From: a virus
IMG/VR virus record: IMGVR_UViG_3300032116_000108
Span: 16,133-80,132 of that record
Length of the DNA stretch: 64,000 nt
Direction: 5' to 3' (one strand)
Positions 14,725 through 46,963 of this stretch are shown here, piece after piece. Position 1 is the stretch's first letter. Each line of letters starts with the position of its first letter. Under the pieces are notes generated by a model that saw only the letters and a program-made list of their open reading frames with translations, ran no database searches and was not told the DNA's origin. Position numbers and translations under genes: made by a program.

Positions 14725-16563
14725 TTAACCAAAGTCAACGGTACTTAGATTTAAGACACTTACTTTAATGTCCTTATTAGGGAATCTTATTTGATATATT
14801 TGGTCAGGTTCTGCAAATATCGTATTATTAATTAGTCGTATCTGTTTTGTTGTTGTGTTCACATAACTTTGTGAAGTTTCTGATGATGAGTATTGACCTC
14901 CAACTTTATTATAGACTTTAACTTCACTTAATGTATTAACACCAGCAATATCTTGTATTTGTTTATTAAGGTCAGATATATTAACATTCTGACCCAAATC
15001 TCTATTTGCTGGATTCATGAAGTTTGAAGTTGTATTAATAATTTCAGTTATTACTTGAGATTGGCTACCAGGTGAATCTAAAACTACAAAAAATTCAAAC
15101 TCTAAATCAATAACTTTTGCAACTTCTACGGAAATATAATCATTAATCATTCTATATCTTGATAAATAAGTTGCCAAATTTGAGATCAAGTTATTAGAAA
15201 CCGTTTGTGTTAATGCCCCTGAAACATCATACGATAAAACTTTAACCGATATTTTATTATTAAATTCACTTATTTGAACCTTTGCAGGTGCACCAAATTT
15301 TCCAGGCATTGTCTCTATAAGAGATTTATAATCATTAATTGTTACAGCCCTTCTTTGTGCCGCAAAATTAAATGAAACCATATTTCTTACTTCATTAACG
15401 CTAGGTTGATTTGCCCCTCCTATTGCTGCCGTAATATTATTTACAGTTAATGACTGGACAACATTAGTATTGTCTTGTTGTGACGGACCATTAACACTAA
15501 AATCTATTTGACCTAATTGATTTATCGCACCAACACCAATATTGGACGATAAACCACCACCAATTCTATATTGTATAAACAATGTTGTGTTTGGTATAAC
15601 GGTTAAACCTAAACCAATATTATTTTGATAATTCGCTAAGTTTAATTTTATACCTGTATTTGTAAAATTGTTTAATTGTTGTTCAGGTGTTGTTGTTCCT
15701 CCACCAAATTGTAACTTTAAAAACCCTTCAGGTGTATATTCAGTTATAAATCTATTTTGAGTTTTTATATATTTCCCTACTTTTACACCAGCGTTATCTG
15801 TTGGTTTTGTTGGGTCTTCTACAAATATTGTGTCTTCAACTAAAGAATCGACTTCATACCATCTATTTGTTGATGTCGAAAACTCGGCAAATGTTGGTGT
15901 TGTTTGGTATTGTGTTCCGTCTTTTTGTATTACTGAAGTTACCCCTAAAACATTTCTTTCAGGTAAGAAAAAATTAAAAAAGGGAACAACATCTTGTGGG
16001 TTAATTACTTTTTTAAATACTTTTGTGGCCCCATTTACTACCACTTCTTGTTTAGTAATGACATAACTTGATAACTTATTATCTTGATCAAATATAGGTC
16101 TAACTGTTCTATTGATAAAACCTTCATTATTAAATTGAGTGGAAAAATCAACGTCGTTAACTAATTCAAAGATCTGTCCTCCTCCTTGAAACTGGGATCC
16201 TGCCCTTAAAATACCTAAATATCTTGAATCAGGGGAATCACCAAATGGTCGTACTGTTATTGAAATATTAACAATCGCAACCGATGGTCTGTATCCCGGA
16301 ATTTTAAGTCCGTAGGTTCTAGCAATATTAAATACTGAAGATCTTTGTTGTGCAAACTGTAATACTGTTTCTTGAACACTTCTATCAATATGATAATGTA
16401 AGTTGTCACCTATCGCAGCATTTAAATCCATGAACACAGAAAAAAGAGATGCGTCATTAAAATTTTGTATTAACTCAGGGTAATACTGTTGTGTATAATT
16501 TAATAAGTCTTCTCTTAAACTTACAAAATCTCTGTTTGTGTATGAAATTTTATTATTTGCCAT
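14725..16563 (-). CDS. Baseplate wedge subunit (T4 gp6 / baseplate J-like)
   Basis: YTNRDFVSLREDL, AQQRSSVFNIARTYG, YRIGGG, AIGGA...RAVTINDY motifs; next to gp25. Confidence 0.88.
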   Translation of the reverse strand: MANNKISYTNRDFVSLREDLLNYTQQYYPELIQNFNDASLFSVFMDLNAAIGDNLHYHIDRSVQETVLQFAQQRSSVFNIARTYGLKIPGYRPSVAIVNISITVRPFGDSPDSRYLGILRAGSQFQGGGQIFELVNDVDFSTQFNNEGFINRTVRPIFDQDNKLSSYVITKQEVVVNGATKVFKKVINPQDVVPFFNFFLPERNVLGVTSVIQKDGTQYQTTPTFAEFSTSTNRWYEVDSLVEDTIFVEDPTKPTDNAGVKVGKYIKTQNRFITEYTPEGFLKLQFGGGTTTPEQQLNNFTNTGIKLNLANYQNNIGLGLTVIPNTTLFIQYRIGGGLSSNIGVGAINQLGQIDFSVNGPSQQDNTNVVQSLTVNNITAAIGGANQPSVNEVRNMVSFNFAAQRRAVTINDYKSLIETMPGKFGAPAKVQISEFNNKISVKVLSYDVSGALTQTVSNNLISNLATYLSRYRMINDYISVEVAKVIDLEFEFFVVLDSPGSQSQVITEIINTTSNFMNPANRDLGQNVNISDLNKQIQDIAGVNTLSEVKVYNKVGGQYSSSETSQSYVNTTTKQIRLINNTIFAEPDQIYQIRFPNKDIKVSVLNLSTVDFG

Positions 16564-41015: not shown

Positions 41016-41138
41016 TTATTTTTTTTCGTATTCAGTATACAACTTATCCATGAAATATCTTCTTTCAAAACTTGGCATAATTAAAATATCCGAATACGAA
41101 AAATTTCCGTATTTAGTAAGATAATAAAATTCGTCCAT
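41016..41138 (-). CDS. T4 gp51-like / GT-type chaperone C-terminal ORF (possibly reached by +1 frameshift)
   Basis: MDEFYYLTKYGNFSYSDILIMPSFERRYFMDKLYTEYEKK; the S.S.I..MP..ER pattern is typical of tail-chaperone C-terminal domains. Not in ORF track. Confidence 0.75.
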   Translation of the reverse strand: MDEFYYLTKYGNFSYSDILIMPSFERRYFMDKLYTEYEKK

Positions 41139-41151
41139 TAAATTTTTCTTA

Positions 41152-41907
41152 TTATTCAAAGAAAGGCCGAAAAAACTCCACCCCAAACGTAACATTCACA
41201 GTAACGTTTTCTCCTGACGGGGCTTGAACTTCTCTTACAAGGTTTAATTTAGGTTGGCATTCTTCCATGAATCTTCTTAAACTTTTAGAATCAGATATTG
41301 GTAAATTTATAATAATTGATCCAATAAACCCCTTATCTTTATTTCCGTCAATATCTACTATTTGTGTTTCAAGTTTTTTTGTTACAACAGGTGCAATCAT
41401 TCCTTTAGGGTATTTAGCTGTAAGATTGTCGATTTCTGTTTCTTCTCTCATATTTAACACCTTAAATCTTACCTTTTTTTGTGTTTTCGGTAATGTGTAT
41501 ATAAAAAGTCCATCTTCATCTGGAATATGTTTTAATTCTTGCATATCAACACTATCTAATATAATAGTAGTTTCAAATTCTATTTTAGTTTTAGGGTCCA
41601 TTAGTTTAAACCTATAGTCGGGACCGAAAGCGGTATTTCTTAAAAATAATAGTATTGCTTGAACATCTCCAGGTAATAATAGTTCAACATCAAACCCATG
41701 TTCATAAATTTTATTTCTTAAAAGAGTTTTAATTAATTCAGCACCTGTCATGTTTTGAGACATAAGAAGGTTTTCATCTTGTGCGGTCAGATAACCAATT
41801 TTTAAAGATTCTTTTTTTGGTTTGTAAAAAATACCTCTTGATGGTAATTTAATTACGTCATGTGGTAAGTTAAAATTTTCTTGACCATATTTTAAAGCGT
41901 CGTCCAT
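41152..41907 (-). CDS. T4 gp26-like baseplate hub / tail assembly chaperone
   Basis: LPHDVIKLPSRG, LTAQDENLL, GDVQAILLFLRNTAFG, YTLPKTQKKVRFK; between tube and tape measure. Confidence 0.8.
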   Translation of the reverse strand: MDDALKYGQENFNLPHDVIKLPSRGIFYKPKKESLKIGYLTAQDENLLMSQNMTGAELIKTLLRNKIYEHGFDVELLLPGDVQAILLFLRNTAFGPDYRFKLMDPKTKIEFETTIILDSVDMQELKHIPDEDGLFIYTLPKTQKKVRFKVLNMREETEIDNLTAKYPKGMIAPVVTKKLETQIVDIDGNKDKGFIGSIIINLPISDSKSLRRFMEECQPKLNLVREVQAPSGENVTVNVTFGVEFFRPFFE

Positions 41908-41950: not shown

Positions 41951-41977
41951 AAAAAACCTCACTTTGTTAGTGAGGTT
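41951..41977 (-). terminator. Intrinsic terminator after tail tube gene
   Basis: AACCTCACT-AACAA-AGTGAGGTTTTTT. Confidence 0.85.
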
Positions 41978-42001
41978 CATTATAAAATATTTAAAAGTTA
42001 A

Positions 42002-42490
42002 TTAATATACTAAAATACATCTGTCAGGTTGTAATTTCATATCAACTCCCATGATATCATCTCCACCGTAGTTTAGTGAACCAAAGTTTACGCTTGTAAT
42101 TAAACAACCTTGTAGAATCCACTTTTCAACCGCCACACCTGTTGGGTCTAACAATTCTAAGTCAAGATCTTTTTTATAACCGGCAGCATATCCCATACGA
42201 CCCGTTACTGATTCTGCATGTAATCTAACCCATTCCATTGCCGCTTGTGCTGCCGAAGGTCCGATTGGGTCTCTTAATTTAACACCAATCTCACCCCATG
42301 AAAAGTTACTTGAAACGTAAGTTTGTGTGTTTAAGAATTTTATTTCTTTTTTTCCAATTGTTATTTGAGGTCTATTGGTAGTTTCAACATACCAAGAATT
42401 AATCCCCAAAGAAGATGGGAAAGTCAATATAAACCTATTTGCTCTTTTAGGTTCATACTGAAAAGGCATTCTCATTAATAAATCAGCCAT
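42002..42490 (-). CDS. Tail tube protein (T4 gp19-like)
   Basis: EPKRANRF, WGEIGVKLRDPI, YKKDLDLELLDPTG..VEKWILQG. Confidence 0.9.
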   Translation of the reverse strand: MADLLMRMPFQYEPKRANRFILTFPSSLGINSWYVETTNRPQITIGKKEIKFLNTQTYVSSNFSWGEIGVKLRDPIGPSAAQAAMEWVRLHAESVTGRMGYAAGYKKDLDLELLDPTGVAVEKWILQGCLITSVNFGSLNYGGDDIMGVDMKLQPDRCILVY

Positions 42491-43750: not shown

Positions 43751-46700
43751 TTATACGTCATCGAACGATGCTCCTGTTGGTGTGATAACAAACTCTATGT
43801 CTATGTATTCTAACGCTCTTGTTGGTTTCAAGAAGATTTTACCCGTTAAAGTATTTGAATCCAAATCTTCAGGAGTATTAGAAACAGTAACTCTAAAGTC
43901 AATTAAACCTCTATCTCTTCTGATTGAATCCAAGATTGGGTTAACCGCATCTAAGAAATCTTGTCTCACTTTGTCGTCATTTTGTTCAAATAACAATCTA
44001 ACCGCAACCGCTGAAATTAACTTTCTTGCTTGTAGTAACAATCTTCTAACGTTAATTCTATCTAAAGCGGATTCTCTAATTTGTAAAGTTTTATTACCCC
44101 AAATAACCGTACCAACATCAGAGAAAGTAGCTATTGGATTAATTCTTCCTTTATATAGTGTATCTCTATCTTCTTGAGTTAGTTTCTTTCTTGCTTTAAT
44201 AGAGTTAACCAAACCTCTTGTGTAACCAGCCGATGCGAACCAAGGGAATGCAATATTATCGGTTAATGCTAAGTTTTTAGTTACCTCACCTGTTGGTGGA
44301 AGATAAATTTGAGTATTATTTACAGAATCTCTTGTCAAAATCCACGGATAGTAAGTTGCTGTGTAATTTGAATCAATTCCTGTATTCTCTAAATTATCTA
44401 CCACTTCTTGTGGATAAATTAATCCTTCCGTTAAGTCACTGTATGAAGGTAAGAAAAGATTAAAGTCAGGTGTTGTACAAATGTAAATTGAGTCAGCCCT
44501 ATCAGTTTCAACAACATCTATAGCGTTTTCAACAAGATTTGAATTATTAACATAATCAATTCCTGGTGTAACAAAAACGTTAATGTTAGTTGCTTCAGGA
44601 TTTGCAAATGATGTTTGACCCCATAGATATGCATAATAGTCAGTATTTGCCCACACTTCTTGGTTAGGTCCTGTAATTTGTTTAAATGCCCCCCATCCTG
44701 TTGCTGTTGGGTATGTGGCAGACGCCGCAGCACCTTTTTTATAACCTGATTGACCTAATTGGAATCTATCGGTATTGGTTCTACTTTCTCTGTATATATC
44801 CCAACCATCAAAACCGCCAGCGGCTAATAATGTAAATTTACGAGTATTTAATCTAAAATATGCATTATCTGAATCCGTAGGTTCAGAGTTGAAAGAAGAA
44901 ACCCCAACCTCAAAAGCCGAAGTATTAGCAGACATAAGTACATCAAACATAGTAACTATAGTTGCTCCACTATCCATGTGGAAACCTTTTGTCTTGTAAC
45001 CCCATTCTGATCCTGTAGTATCTACCGCAATATTTGAAGGTAATTGTTTTCCTTTATAATTAAAGAAGTCATAATCTATTCCTGTAATATTAGATATACC
45101 TAAATAAGCCCTTCTTGGATTTTCTCCATTTGAGATTACTGGATTATCTCCGCCCGCTGATGAACCAAATGGTGGGTTATATATTACTTCACCAGGTGTT
45201 AAGTATTTAGTTTTATAAATAACAAAAGGAGGGGTTGCAGTTTGGTATTGTCTAGAAATATAACCCTCAAATCCACAAGGTAATGCATCGGTTGGGTACT
45301 CTTCACTTAACTCAACCATTATGTATTTAGAATTTAGTTGGTATTCTCCATTTGCGGTACCAACTTTGTTTGCCACAAAATTATTAAGATTAGGATCCAT
45401 TGAACAATTTGTGAAACTTTCAATTACTCTAACGTTTTGATCATTATCATAAAAGTCTCTTACAAAAATATCAAACGTTCCATTATTAAATGAAATATTC
45501 CCAATAGAAATCTTAACAAGTCTGTTAGAGGCATCTCCATCTGAAATAAGTTTGAATTTAAATAATTTATAAACTTTGTTACCTCTTAATTCAGAAACAA
45601 CAAATGGAGTTTCAGGTGTTTGGTATTGTTCTAAATAAAAACCTAAAGTGTCGTTATCTCCACTTCTTGCATCATCAATAGCGATAAAGTCACAATACAA
45701 ACCTCTAACTTTACCGGCCCTATAACCTGATGTTAATAGACTACTGTAAGATTCCTCAACAAATAAAGGAACCTCATTTCTATCTTTAGCAAAATTAGAC
45801 CTACCAAATATTTTAGAAATATATCTACTATCTGTTGAAAGGAGTGAAGTTTCAAAACTAAAAGTGTCACTATCTTTTGTAATACCTGAAATAACAAATG
45901 TACCGTATGGGTCTTTAGTAATTCCTGAATAATTTCCTGAACATACCATAATTGCGTCACTTGTACCACTAACTTCATAAACAGGACCATCATCTGTTGA
46001 ATATGTTGATATACCTCTTGATCTTAAAGTTGCAACTACTAAATCGTCATAATCAGAATATGGTGTACCTGAATAGAATGTTGCATATAATTTACAAGTA
46101 CCTGTAAATTGTGAGGTAGTTGCGCCTGTGCCAATAGCATCAAGAGCAGCACCAAAACCAAAACCATAATAACTTCCAACACTATTAGTTTTAGTATAAT
46201 CAAATAATGAGTAATACCAAGGGTCGTTAACGTCCGAACTTAAATCTGCATTTGCTAAAATTACATTATCAACACCAAAAGTTTCAGTTGTTGCAGAAAC
46301 AGGAACTCCAAATAATGTAGTACCGGTTACTTGGTTAAACGTTCCTCCACTTACTGTTCCCCAAAATACTGCGTTACCTACTGTTGCTCCACTACCACCA
46401 CTTGCAAAATTATTAATTTTATTTGATAAGAAATTTATAAAATCTTGATTTAATGATGAAGTACCTCCATTAAATGTTGTATAGTTGTTATAAAATATTG
46501 ATGATAACAATGATGACGGGTTAGTTACTGTAACATTTGCACTTGAACCTGTTGTACCTGTGAAAGTTAATGTGTATGATGTGCTAACACCTGTTGCCGC
46601 TATTGTTGATGTATCGGGGTTTCCTATCGTTGTAATAGACCAAGATGGTCCCGCATCATAACCCGATAAACCAAGAACTCTTGTTACAAAAAGTTGGTTA

Positions 46701-46963
46701 GATTGTTGCAAATAAGATTTTGCAATATAAGATGTTTCATATTTAGGAATTTGAGTATTAACAAATTTTTCAGGGCTTGTGCCACCGAAATAAACTTGAT
46801 ACTCGTCAAAACTTGTAATGAAGATTGGTTCAAATGCCGGACCTTGTAGTGTTTCACCTACAATACCTAATGTTGTTACACCGACACTTTGAGCCACAAA
46901 AGTTAAATCTCTTTCTGATGTATAAACACCTGGAGATACAAATACTTTGTTAGTTGAAGCCAT
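43751..46963 (-). CDS. Tail sheath protein (T4 gp18-like)
   Basis: SPGVYTSERD, PWFASAGYTRG, RINPIATF, IWGNKTLQ, RINVRRLL, LFEQND, PTRALEYI. Confidence 0.96.
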   Translation of the reverse strand: MASTNKVFVSPGVYTSERDLTFVAQSVGVTTLGIVGETLQGPAFEPIFITSFDEYQVYFGGTSPEKFVNTQIPKYETSYIAKSYLQQSNQLFVTRVLGLSGYDAGPSWSITTIGNPDTSTIAATGVSTSYTLTFTGTTGSSANVTVTNPSSLLSSIFYNNYTTFNGGTSSLNQDFINFLSNKINNFASGGSGATVGNAVFWGTVSGGTFNQVTGTTLFGVPVSATTETFGVDNVILANADLSSDVNDPWYYSLFDYTKTNSVGSYYGFGFGAALDAIGTGATTSQFTGTCKLYATFYSGTPYSDYDDLVVATLRSRGISTYSTDDGPVYEVSGTSDAIMVCSGNYSGITKDPYGTFVISGITKDSDTFSFETSLLSTDSRYISKIFGRSNFAKDRNEVPLFVEESYSSLLTSGYRAGKVRGLYCDFIAIDDARSGDNDTLGFYLEQYQTPETPFVVSELRGNKVYKLFKFKLISDGDASNRLVKISIGNISFNNGTFDIFVRDFYDNDQNVRVIESFTNCSMDPNLNNFVANKVGTANGEYQLNSKYIMVELSEEYPTDALPCGFEGYISRQYQTATPPFVIYKTKYLTPGEVIYNPPFGSSAGGDNPVISNGENPRRAYLGISNITGIDYDFFNYKGKQLPSNIAVDTTGSEWGYKTKGFHMDSGATIVTMFDVLMSANTSAFEVGVSSFNSEPTDSDNAYFRLNTRKFTLLAAGGFDGWDIYRESRTNTDRFQLGQSGYKKGAAASATYPTATGWGAFKQITGPNQEVWANTDYYAYLWGQTSFANPEATNINVFVTPGIDYVNNSNLVENAIDVVETDRADSIYICTTPDFNLFLPSYSDLTEGLIYPQEVVDNLENTGIDSNYTATYYPWILTRDSVNNTQIYLPPTGEVTKNLALTDNIAFPWFASAGYTRGLVNSIKARKKLTQEDRDTLYKGRINPIATFSDVGTVIWGNKTLQIRESALDRINVRRLLLQARKLISAVAVRLLFEQNDDKVRQDFLDAVNPILDSIRRDRGLIDFRVTVSNTPEDLDSNTLTGKIFLKPTRALEYIDIEFVITPTGASFDDV

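Follow-up and report, generated by a model that had tools for sequence, protein, structure and literature searches.

Tail-chaperone frameshifting (Xu et al., 2004) is among the most conserved recoding events of phages, and the G-T frameshift that exemplifies it is retained, 'except T4', by phages with long tails (Atkins et al., 2016, PMC5009743). The recoding review mentions a single likely +1 case, in an archaeal myovirus (PMC5009743). T4 itself uses two baseplate hub assembly chaperones, gp26 and gp51 (Leiman et al., 2010, PMC3004832, Table 2), which are encoded by separate, divergently placed genes (26 and 51) and not by one frameshifted gene. Here we describe a gp26-like gene in a window of 64,000 nucleotides (positions 16,133 to 80,132 of IMG/VR record IMGVR_UViG_3300032116_000108; contig G000, 80,132 bp, 31% G+C) from an uncultured lake phage. 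The gene ends in a candidate +1 shift site, UUU_UUU_CGG, and very probably makes two proteins, of 251 and 296 residues. The sequences of this locus and of hundreds of relatives suggest that frameshifting does occur in the gp26/gp51 family of T4 hub chaperones, which would be a new, forward-shifting form of frameshift-coupled tail assembly chaperones. Our literature search found no report of a frameshift, +1 or -1, in gp26/gp51-like genes.

The predicted elements of the locus are the following (window coordinates):

41152-41907, minus strand: gp26-like gene, short form of 251 amino acids ending FGVEFFRPFFE*; an open reading frame (ORF) matching PF12322 and phrog_150
41167-41175, minus strand: candidate shift site UUU_UUU_CGG, with the six T at 41175-41170 and the C at 41169
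41016-41168, minus strand: predicted C-terminal extension in the +1 frame, 50 codons and a stop, part of the long form (296 amino acids) only
41180-41223, minus strand: conserved RNA hairpin next to the shift site, on its 5' side, a candidate stimulator of the +1 shift

The 3' end of the gp26-like gene reads GGG GTG GAG TTT TTT CGG CCT TTC TTT GAA TAA, with the frame-0 stop at 41154-41152. The +1 frame (TTC GGC CTT TCT ... AAA AAA TAA) continues to 41019 and ends with a stop at 41018-41016, and the -1 frame is shut after six codons (...VFSAFL*), which leaves only the +1 frame open. The ORF list of the window holds 41152..41907 (251 amino acids) and 41016..41195 (59 amino acids from ATG 41195). 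When TTTC is read as one step, the two frames give a 296-residue product with the junction ...GVEFF-GLSLNNKKNLMDEFYY...EKK. An earlier note on this DNA had proposed a +1 shift at 41175-41167, at the end of the gp26-like gene and with the +1 frame open to 41016; site, gene end and frame were confirmed exactly, and the junction came out as it had been written there. Its placement of the locus between tube and tape measure also agrees with the gp19-like tube gene upstream and, by position in cultured relatives, with a tape measure gene downstream.

Comparison of related loci shows a conserved, putative recoding signal at the end of the gp26-like gene. The relatives came from two scans of viral contigs, which returned 90 loci; 80 of these were distinct (50-99% protein identity) and are the relatives counted below. 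All 80 carry the nine-base TTTTTTCGN, in which only the last base varies. Codon by codon, the two phenylalanines at the site are TTT TTT in every relative, and six other conserved phenylalanine columns (at least 90% Phe) have 7-19% TTC. The arginine that follows is encoded by CGG in 34 relatives, CGT in 31, CGC in 12, CGA in three and AGR in none. A control invariant arginine (R90) of the same proteins is AGA in 68 cases, AGG in six and CGN in six (92% AGR). These control values mirror the arginine codons of the contig, where AGA makes up 79%, AGA and AGG together 92% and all CGN 7.7%; CGG occurs in two of 757 (0.08 per 1000 codons) and is indeed the very rare codon that the earlier note had taken it for. 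The third base of the site's arginine codon drifts across the relatives while its C is held, as the re-pairing of tRNA-Phe from UUU to UUC requires. The UUU_CGN motif is accompanied by an open, conserved +1 ORF in the 80 relatives.

Read depth offers a side view of the same site. In the probable source lake metagenome, the summed depth was 81.7 in bin 41127-41187, which contains the slip site, and about 21 elsewhere, an approximately fourfold rise. A contig piece of a co-occurring relative (90-95% identity) maps to 41159-41192. The rise is consistent with nucleotide-level conservation among co-occurring relatives.

The reading frame behind the site behaves as a coding sequence that lacks a start of its own. 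It opens 1-21 codons ahead of the site and, in each complete locus, continues without a stop for 48-62 codons. The peptide is conserved from the junction on (xLSSxYxKxLLDExYYLxKxxNFSYSDxxxMPTYERKYFIxKLIEE), and per-position entropy has the pattern of coding DNA in the +1 frame, with the second position most conserved and the third least, straight after the frame-0 stop. No ATG, GTG or TTG start is conserved for this ORF among the 80 relatives, and the alignments thus show a conserved and apparently start-less +1 ORF. A +1-frame TTG six codons before the junction is common and was considered as an independent start. It was rejected, for the phenylalanine codons at that place are TTT and TTC in a ratio of 67:13, which is the neutral ratio; the TTG is a by-product of frame-0 TTT GGG and was not selected.

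The absence of a conserved start bears on the alternative that the earlier note had offered, namely that two ordinary genes overlap here and that the small ORF starts independently at ATG 41138 (40 amino acids) or ATG 41195 (59 amino acids) with no change of frame. Both ATGs are present in the window phage, about 40% of the relatives have an ATG at extension codon 9 or 10, and small, truncated ORFs are annotated at this place in the GenBank entries for cultured relatives. The host type also seems free of a need for Shine-Dalgarno pairing: a Shine-Dalgarno word (GGAG, GAGG or AGGA) precedes only 3 of the 59 contig ORFs of at least 100 amino acids, and leaders are A/T-rich, so that the similarly A/T-rich leader of ATG 41138 could serve. 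(The scarcity of these words fits a host without such pairing, e.g., in the Bacteroidota.) The position of ATG 41138, however, is Leu or Ile in most relatives, as TTA, CTT, TTG or ATT, and ATG 41195 is likewise unconserved, whereas TTT-C-GN is found in every relative. In at least eight relatives, extension codon 9 is not preceded by any start codon. Six are L010, L052, L056, L059, L072 and L079; in two others (L007 and L031), the +1 frame has a stop one codon ahead of the site and could start no earlier than a TTG at codon 9 (L007) or 16 (L031). Conservation and coding periodicity begin at the site and the frame-0 stop, upstream of the Met, as had been anticipated for a true frameshift. The predicted structure points the same way. 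AlphaFold2 (AF2) models the 50-residue extension as a three-helix domain (predicted local distance difference test score, pLDDT, 93) in which helix 1 spans residues 2-21 and thus starts ahead of the Met at residue 11 (ATG 41138). Two ordinary genes would, furthermore, leave unexplained the frozen TTTTTTC, the CGN-only arginine and the fact that the fusion matches gp51-like profiles colinearly. We regard this alternative as improbable.

Some form of recoding very probably joins the two frames, and a programmed +1 ribosomal slip of tRNA-Phe on UUU_C, giving two forms of one tail-assembly chaperone, is the form that we consider likely. Most ribosomes would read GAG UUU UUU CGG CCU UUC UUU GAA UAA and release the 251-residue gp26-like protein. 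A minority would stall while CGG, a rare codon, occupies the A site and peptidyl-tRNA-Phe (anticodon GAA) is paired with the second UUU (41172-41170). This tRNA would then re-pair one base forward on UUC (41171-41169), and GGC (41168-41166) would be decoded next. The shift would add the 50-residue three-helix domain through the junction ...VEFF-GLSLNNK... to yield 296 residues, and the conserved hairpin, four nucleotides upstream of the U run, may tune or stimulate it. The outcome may follow the logic of lambda G/GT, in which the long form is made at a fixed low ratio and its extra domain recruits a further part of the tail. That the shift goes +1 and not -2, how efficient it is, what the hairpin does and which partners are bound are inferred.

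The earlier note had described the locus as a G/GT pair made by a +1 shift at a hungry codon. The G/GT analogy and the +1 shift are supported by the data above. The 'hungry CGG' fared less well, because the clade uses all four CGN codons (CGG, CGT, CGC and CGA) and the slip codon of distant relatives is followed by CUU, CUA, CAC, UGG or AGU. A rare codon in the A site is plausible as a helper of the slip and not as a general requirement.

Distant phages with 25-30% identity keep a homologous out-of-frame extension and have the following sites and predicted shifts:

AGC_UUU_CUU, Flavobacterium phage immuto, +1
AAC_UUU_CUA, LR756508, +1
UUC_UUU_CGU, phage GXN1 and Bacillus phage HSE3, +1
UUU_UUU_CAC, Bacillus phage SP-15, +1
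UUU_UUU_UGG (U7), Microcystis phage Mel-JY01 and Rhodothermus phage RM378, +1
UUU_UUU_AGU, Listeria phage LIS04, +1
U_UUU_UUC, Agrobacterium phage Atu_ph07 and LR756511, -1

The sites of immuto, LR756508, GXN1, HSE3, SP-15, Mel-JY01 and RM378 have in common a UUU followed by a pyrimidine, and U-U-U then pyrimidine would be the firm requirement. Several of these U runs are only three long, which makes it less likely that the family relies on slippage of RNA polymerase or on a -2 shift. In the first of these scenarios, the polymerase would drop one U on U6 and the resulting U5 mRNAs, decoded in the standard way, would also give the EFFGLS fusion. Deleting one base of the run does yield exactly that product, and the run lends itself to the idea, with six T in 80/80 clade relatives and T7 in two distant ones. 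Homologous extensions nevertheless lie behind runs of just three T (TTC TTT CGT, AGC TTT CTT and AAC TTT CTA), and the DNA contigs have no indel at the run. Polymerase slippage would not need the C, yet the C is kept as CGN despite the strong AGA bias. To our knowledge, bacterial cases of transcriptional slippage involve runs of about nine or more. There is little chance, in our estimation, that slippage of the polymerase explains the locus.

A -2 frameshift on U6 would instead move the peptidyl-tRNA-Phe two bases back and insert an extra Phe, with the junction VEFFFGLSLNNK in place of VEFFGLSLNNK for the +1 shift. U6 permits perfect re-pairing two bases back, and the first Phe codon is TTT in 80/80 relatives even though a +1 slip on the second codon could in principle do without it. 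The family also shifts backward (-1) on U_UUU_UUC in Atu_ph07 and LR756511. The UUC_UUU_CGU and AGC_UUU_CUU lineages, on the other hand, are unable to re-pair at -2, and the conserved C is left unexplained. Stimulators of backward shifts are usually downstream, whereas the conserved structure is upstream here. We regard a -2 shift as improbable, too.

Several observations weigh against the +1 slip as the sole explanation. The site of Listeria phage LIS04 (UUU_UUU_AGU) is without the C. On U6, a -2 shift or the loss of one U enters the same frame, and the case against both comes solely from the relatives with shorter runs. The ATG at 41138 of the window phage has an A/T-rich context like that of other gene starts, and a separately made 40-residue peptide from this ATG may be an extra product. 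Also on this side, no in-frame fused homologue (about 295 amino acids) was present among the best 120 relatives, and a search for 'longer' proteins with the 50-residue extension returned no annotated or natural in-frame fusion.

Two backward-shifting members of the family are giant phages. Both Agrobacterium phage Atu_ph07 (L099; MF403008, approximately 470050-470300) and LR756511 (L101) have the extension in the -1 frame behind U_UUU_UUC and strong predicted downstream hairpins; the stem of Atu_ph07 has 11 bp of the GAACCGGAGGA/UCCGGUUC type. The Atu_ph07 record has no slippage annotated and LR756511 is without any annotation. Like the window, these phages combine a member of the same gene family with a Phe-Phe slippery patch, a homologous gp51-like extension and a predicted short/long outcome. 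They differ in that their run is phased U_UUU_UUC, is read backward and has its hairpin downstream, whereas that of the window is UUU_UUU_C, forward, with the hairpin upstream. None of the GenBank records examined (immuto, Mel-JY01, SP-15, HSE3, RM378, LIS04 and Atu_ph07) annotates the whole extension, which is either overlooked or cut short. We tentatively propose, as a conjecture that is somewhat less likely to hold than to fail, that the Phe-Phe codons of the gp26/gp51 family are an ancient two-way slippery patch. UUU_UUY would shift +1 with the hairpin upstream, U_UUU_UUC would shift -1 with the hairpin downstream, and T4 would have arrived at its two genes by duplication. The upstream hairpin would be a natural +1 stimulator under this proposal and, if it is true, the natural counterpart of the engineered 'refolding upstream hairpin' effect.

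The RNA just upstream of the site is conserved beyond what the protein requires in several positions. Synonymous sites are frozen there (GGG in 80/80, GGA in 80/80, CCG in 69/80 and one invariant third-position C). The hairpin has an outer stem (41223-41218 with 41185-41180), an inner 7-bp stem (41208-41202 with 41192-41186) and a 9-nucleotide 5' bulge, UCAGGAGAA (41217-41209), that is nearly invariant, synonymous positions included. Its 3' end is four nucleotides before the U run. RNAalifold found the outer stem (RCCCCG/YGGGGY), and the hairpin architecture is the minimum free energy fold in 11/11 relatives (-12 to -19 kcal/mol). For the 13 hairpin pairs, 90.6% of alignment cells pair, versus 39-61% with slid partners. 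Two pairs of alignment A2 (50-68 and 53-65) covary at synonymous sites, with 42 double-sided cells versus 18.7 +/- 5.1 in shuffles, a control that leaves the shared ancestry of the sequences in place and to that extent weakens the argument. A putative pseudoknot between GGAG in the bulge and CUUC downstream pairs in all cells, and its columns are invariant or dual-coded and hence uninformative. Single-sequence folds, suggestive only, put a hairpin 1-6 nucleotides before the site in six other +1 lineages and a strong one behind it in the two -1 lineages.

In vitro, +1 shifting on bacterial 70S ribosomes is stimulated by hairpins that lie upstream, beside the E site (PMC6321510). The conserved hairpin is a candidate natural +1 stimulator of this kind, a role to which we give at best an even chance. 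The bulge UCAGGAGAA also holds a perfect AGGAG in a genome that is otherwise without Shine-Dalgarno sequences. Stimulation of the Shine-Dalgarno type by the conserved GGGG or AGGAG was considered and rejected as the main explanation. The window differs from prfB-type bacterial +1 frameshifts in having CGG in the A site and GGGG 5 and 8 nucleotides before the two UUU, a spacing that is wrong for prfB logic. Together with the lack of Shine-Dalgarno use noted above, this makes a prfB-like pairing with rRNA unlikely.

The protein itself belongs to the family of the T4 hub chaperones. PF12322 (T4_baseplate) matched the 251-residue protein with 25.1 bits (cut-off 24.5) over residues 34-242 and profile positions 15-213 of 219. 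The 'baseplate hub' profile phrog_150 matched the short form at E 4.7e-12 (46.9 bits, profile positions 10-234), and the match to the +1 fusion rose to 54 bits and ran across the junction to cover profile positions 10-272 of 282. We identified 2640 gp26-like homologues. Among the best 120, 119 have 246-252 amino acids and one has 209, nearly all have the C-terminal FG[VA][ED]FFRPFF motif, and PF12322 is on record for 81. Lake and sea viromes are rich in this family, with 2640 protein clusters and at least 597 viral contigs.

Profile comparison shows that the predicted extension is homologous to the C-terminal tail of T4 gp51. The gp51 family profile phrog_634 ('baseplate hub assembly catalyst') was matched by 6/64 extension sequences (best E 0.002), over profile positions 70-118 where checked, and hhalign placed the extension on T4 gp51 residues 223-245 (weak, E 0.06). 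In T4, PF12322 covers residues 1-206 of gp26 and residues 1-201 of gp51, which has an additional 48-residue tail; gp51 matches phrog_150 end to end and phrog_634 over residues 147-246. The alignment of A1 with single T4 gp26 and gp51 sequences in hhalign gave nothing useful, and the relationship therefore rests on the Pfam and PHROG profiles. On these profiles, the short and long products would correspond to T4 gp26 and gp51, and the long form would likely act, by analogy, like gp51 or gpGT in tail or hub assembly.

T4 gp26 (208 amino acids) and gp51 (249 amino acids) are thus a short and long chaperone pair of the same PF12322 family as the window protein. The likeness extends to the C-terminus of gp26 (...KEFFELL), which has the same EFF motif, and to the tail of gp51, which matches the +1 extension in a fusion colinear with phrog_150. 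The T4 EFF motif is, however, encoded by GAG TTC TTT GAG, without a slippery run, and gene 26 is followed by gene 25 and has no extension ORF. The cysteine pairs of T4 gp26 are absent from the window protein, whose gene, unlike T4 gene 26, is located between tube and tape measure genes. The T4 gene pair 26/51 could be explained as a duplicated, frameshift-free solution. The T4 record (L093, NC_000866 115802-116089) also annotates an internal-start product, 26', that has 95 amino acids and is the C-terminal half of gp26; T4 gene 26 thus already yields two products by another route.

The organization of the locus resembles lambda gpG/gpGT as well. In both, the second ORF is start-less, the slippery site is conserved near the end of the first ORF, the genes are in the order tube, chaperone and tape measure, and the long form gains a small helical domain. 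Lambda gpG/gpGT shifts -1 on X_XXY_YYZ, whereas the window would shift +1 on UUU_UUU_CGN. The short form of the window is also about twice the size of gpG, has an extra N-terminal domain and has no detectable sequence similarity to gpG/gpGT. An AF2 model of the short form (pLDDT 84) matched nothing in the PDB at E <=0.001 with Foldseek. VIA-align found three of 48,161 chains at Z >=5, all on model residues ~64-226 in the C-terminal half: 3klu YqbN (5.9, 81 residues), 3fgx (5.5) and 2ob9 (5.0, 94 residues), although Z values below 8 may reflect merely a common arrangement. The 2ob9 chain is the HK97 tail assembly chaperone, and YqbN is an XkdN-type tail chaperone of a Bacillus prophage-like element. 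The matches hint, at the level of a model, that the C-terminal domain resembles the fold of tail assembly chaperones. A complex prediction for the tube protein and the extension (alignments A4 and A3) scored 0.00, which says nothing either way.

In its proposed mechanism, the locus resembles influenza A PA-X (UCC_UUU_CGU) and the amalgaviruses (PMC5009743), which use the same slip of tRNA-Phe from UUU to UUC before a genome-rare CGN. The +1 extensions are similarly short, with 41-61 amino acids in PA-X and 48-62 in the window clade. The PA-X and amalgavirus shifts take place on eukaryotic 80S ribosomes, without a known stimulator and with very low efficiency. The window differs from them in its bacterial ribosome, the extra UUU ahead of the site and the conserved upstream hairpin. 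The likeness is one of mechanism and not of descent, and the locus would extend the UUU_CGN forward slip of PA-X to bacterial ribosomes.

The gp26-like gene is part of a contractile-tail module on the minus strand, in the order sheath, two small genes, tube, gp26-like gene, extension ORF, a 639-codon gene and a 1910-codon gene. The neighbours are:

43751-46963, minus strand: sheath gene
42002-42490, minus strand: tail tube gene (gp19-like), upstream neighbour; phrog_4542 tail tube at E 1e-22 and, weakly, PF06841
39072-40991, minus strand: putative tape measure gene of 639 amino acids, downstream neighbour, so called by position only

The 639-residue protein had no family match beyond a weak one to phrog_26805. 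A tape measure is annotated at the equivalent place in Flavobacterium phage immuto, Bacillus phage HSE3 and Listeria phage LIS04, and the order of tube, gp26-like gene, extension and next gene is kept in cultured relatives with annotated tape measures. Flavobacterium phages are among the nearest cultured relatives of the tail module. A blastn comparison of 5 kb with cultured phages gave no match, and the window yielded no tRNA gene. Positions 41975-42479 in the tube gene are matched with 99-100% identity by contigs of three lake metatranscriptome libraries (from three studies), in which carry-over of DNA is possible; none of these contigs extends into the gp26-like gene or to the shift site.

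We also identified a motif, TATTTATA, at 41009-41002 on the minus strand, 11 nucleotides ahead of the ATG of the 639-residue gene. The motif recurs 10-20 nucleotides upstream of the start codons of many other genes of the contig, and its copy before the tape measure gene is conserved in relatives L001-L010 and in Flavobacterium phage immuto. TATTTATA corresponds to the T4 late-promoter word TATAAATA in reverse complement, yet it is on the coding strand. The motif is probably a late promoter.

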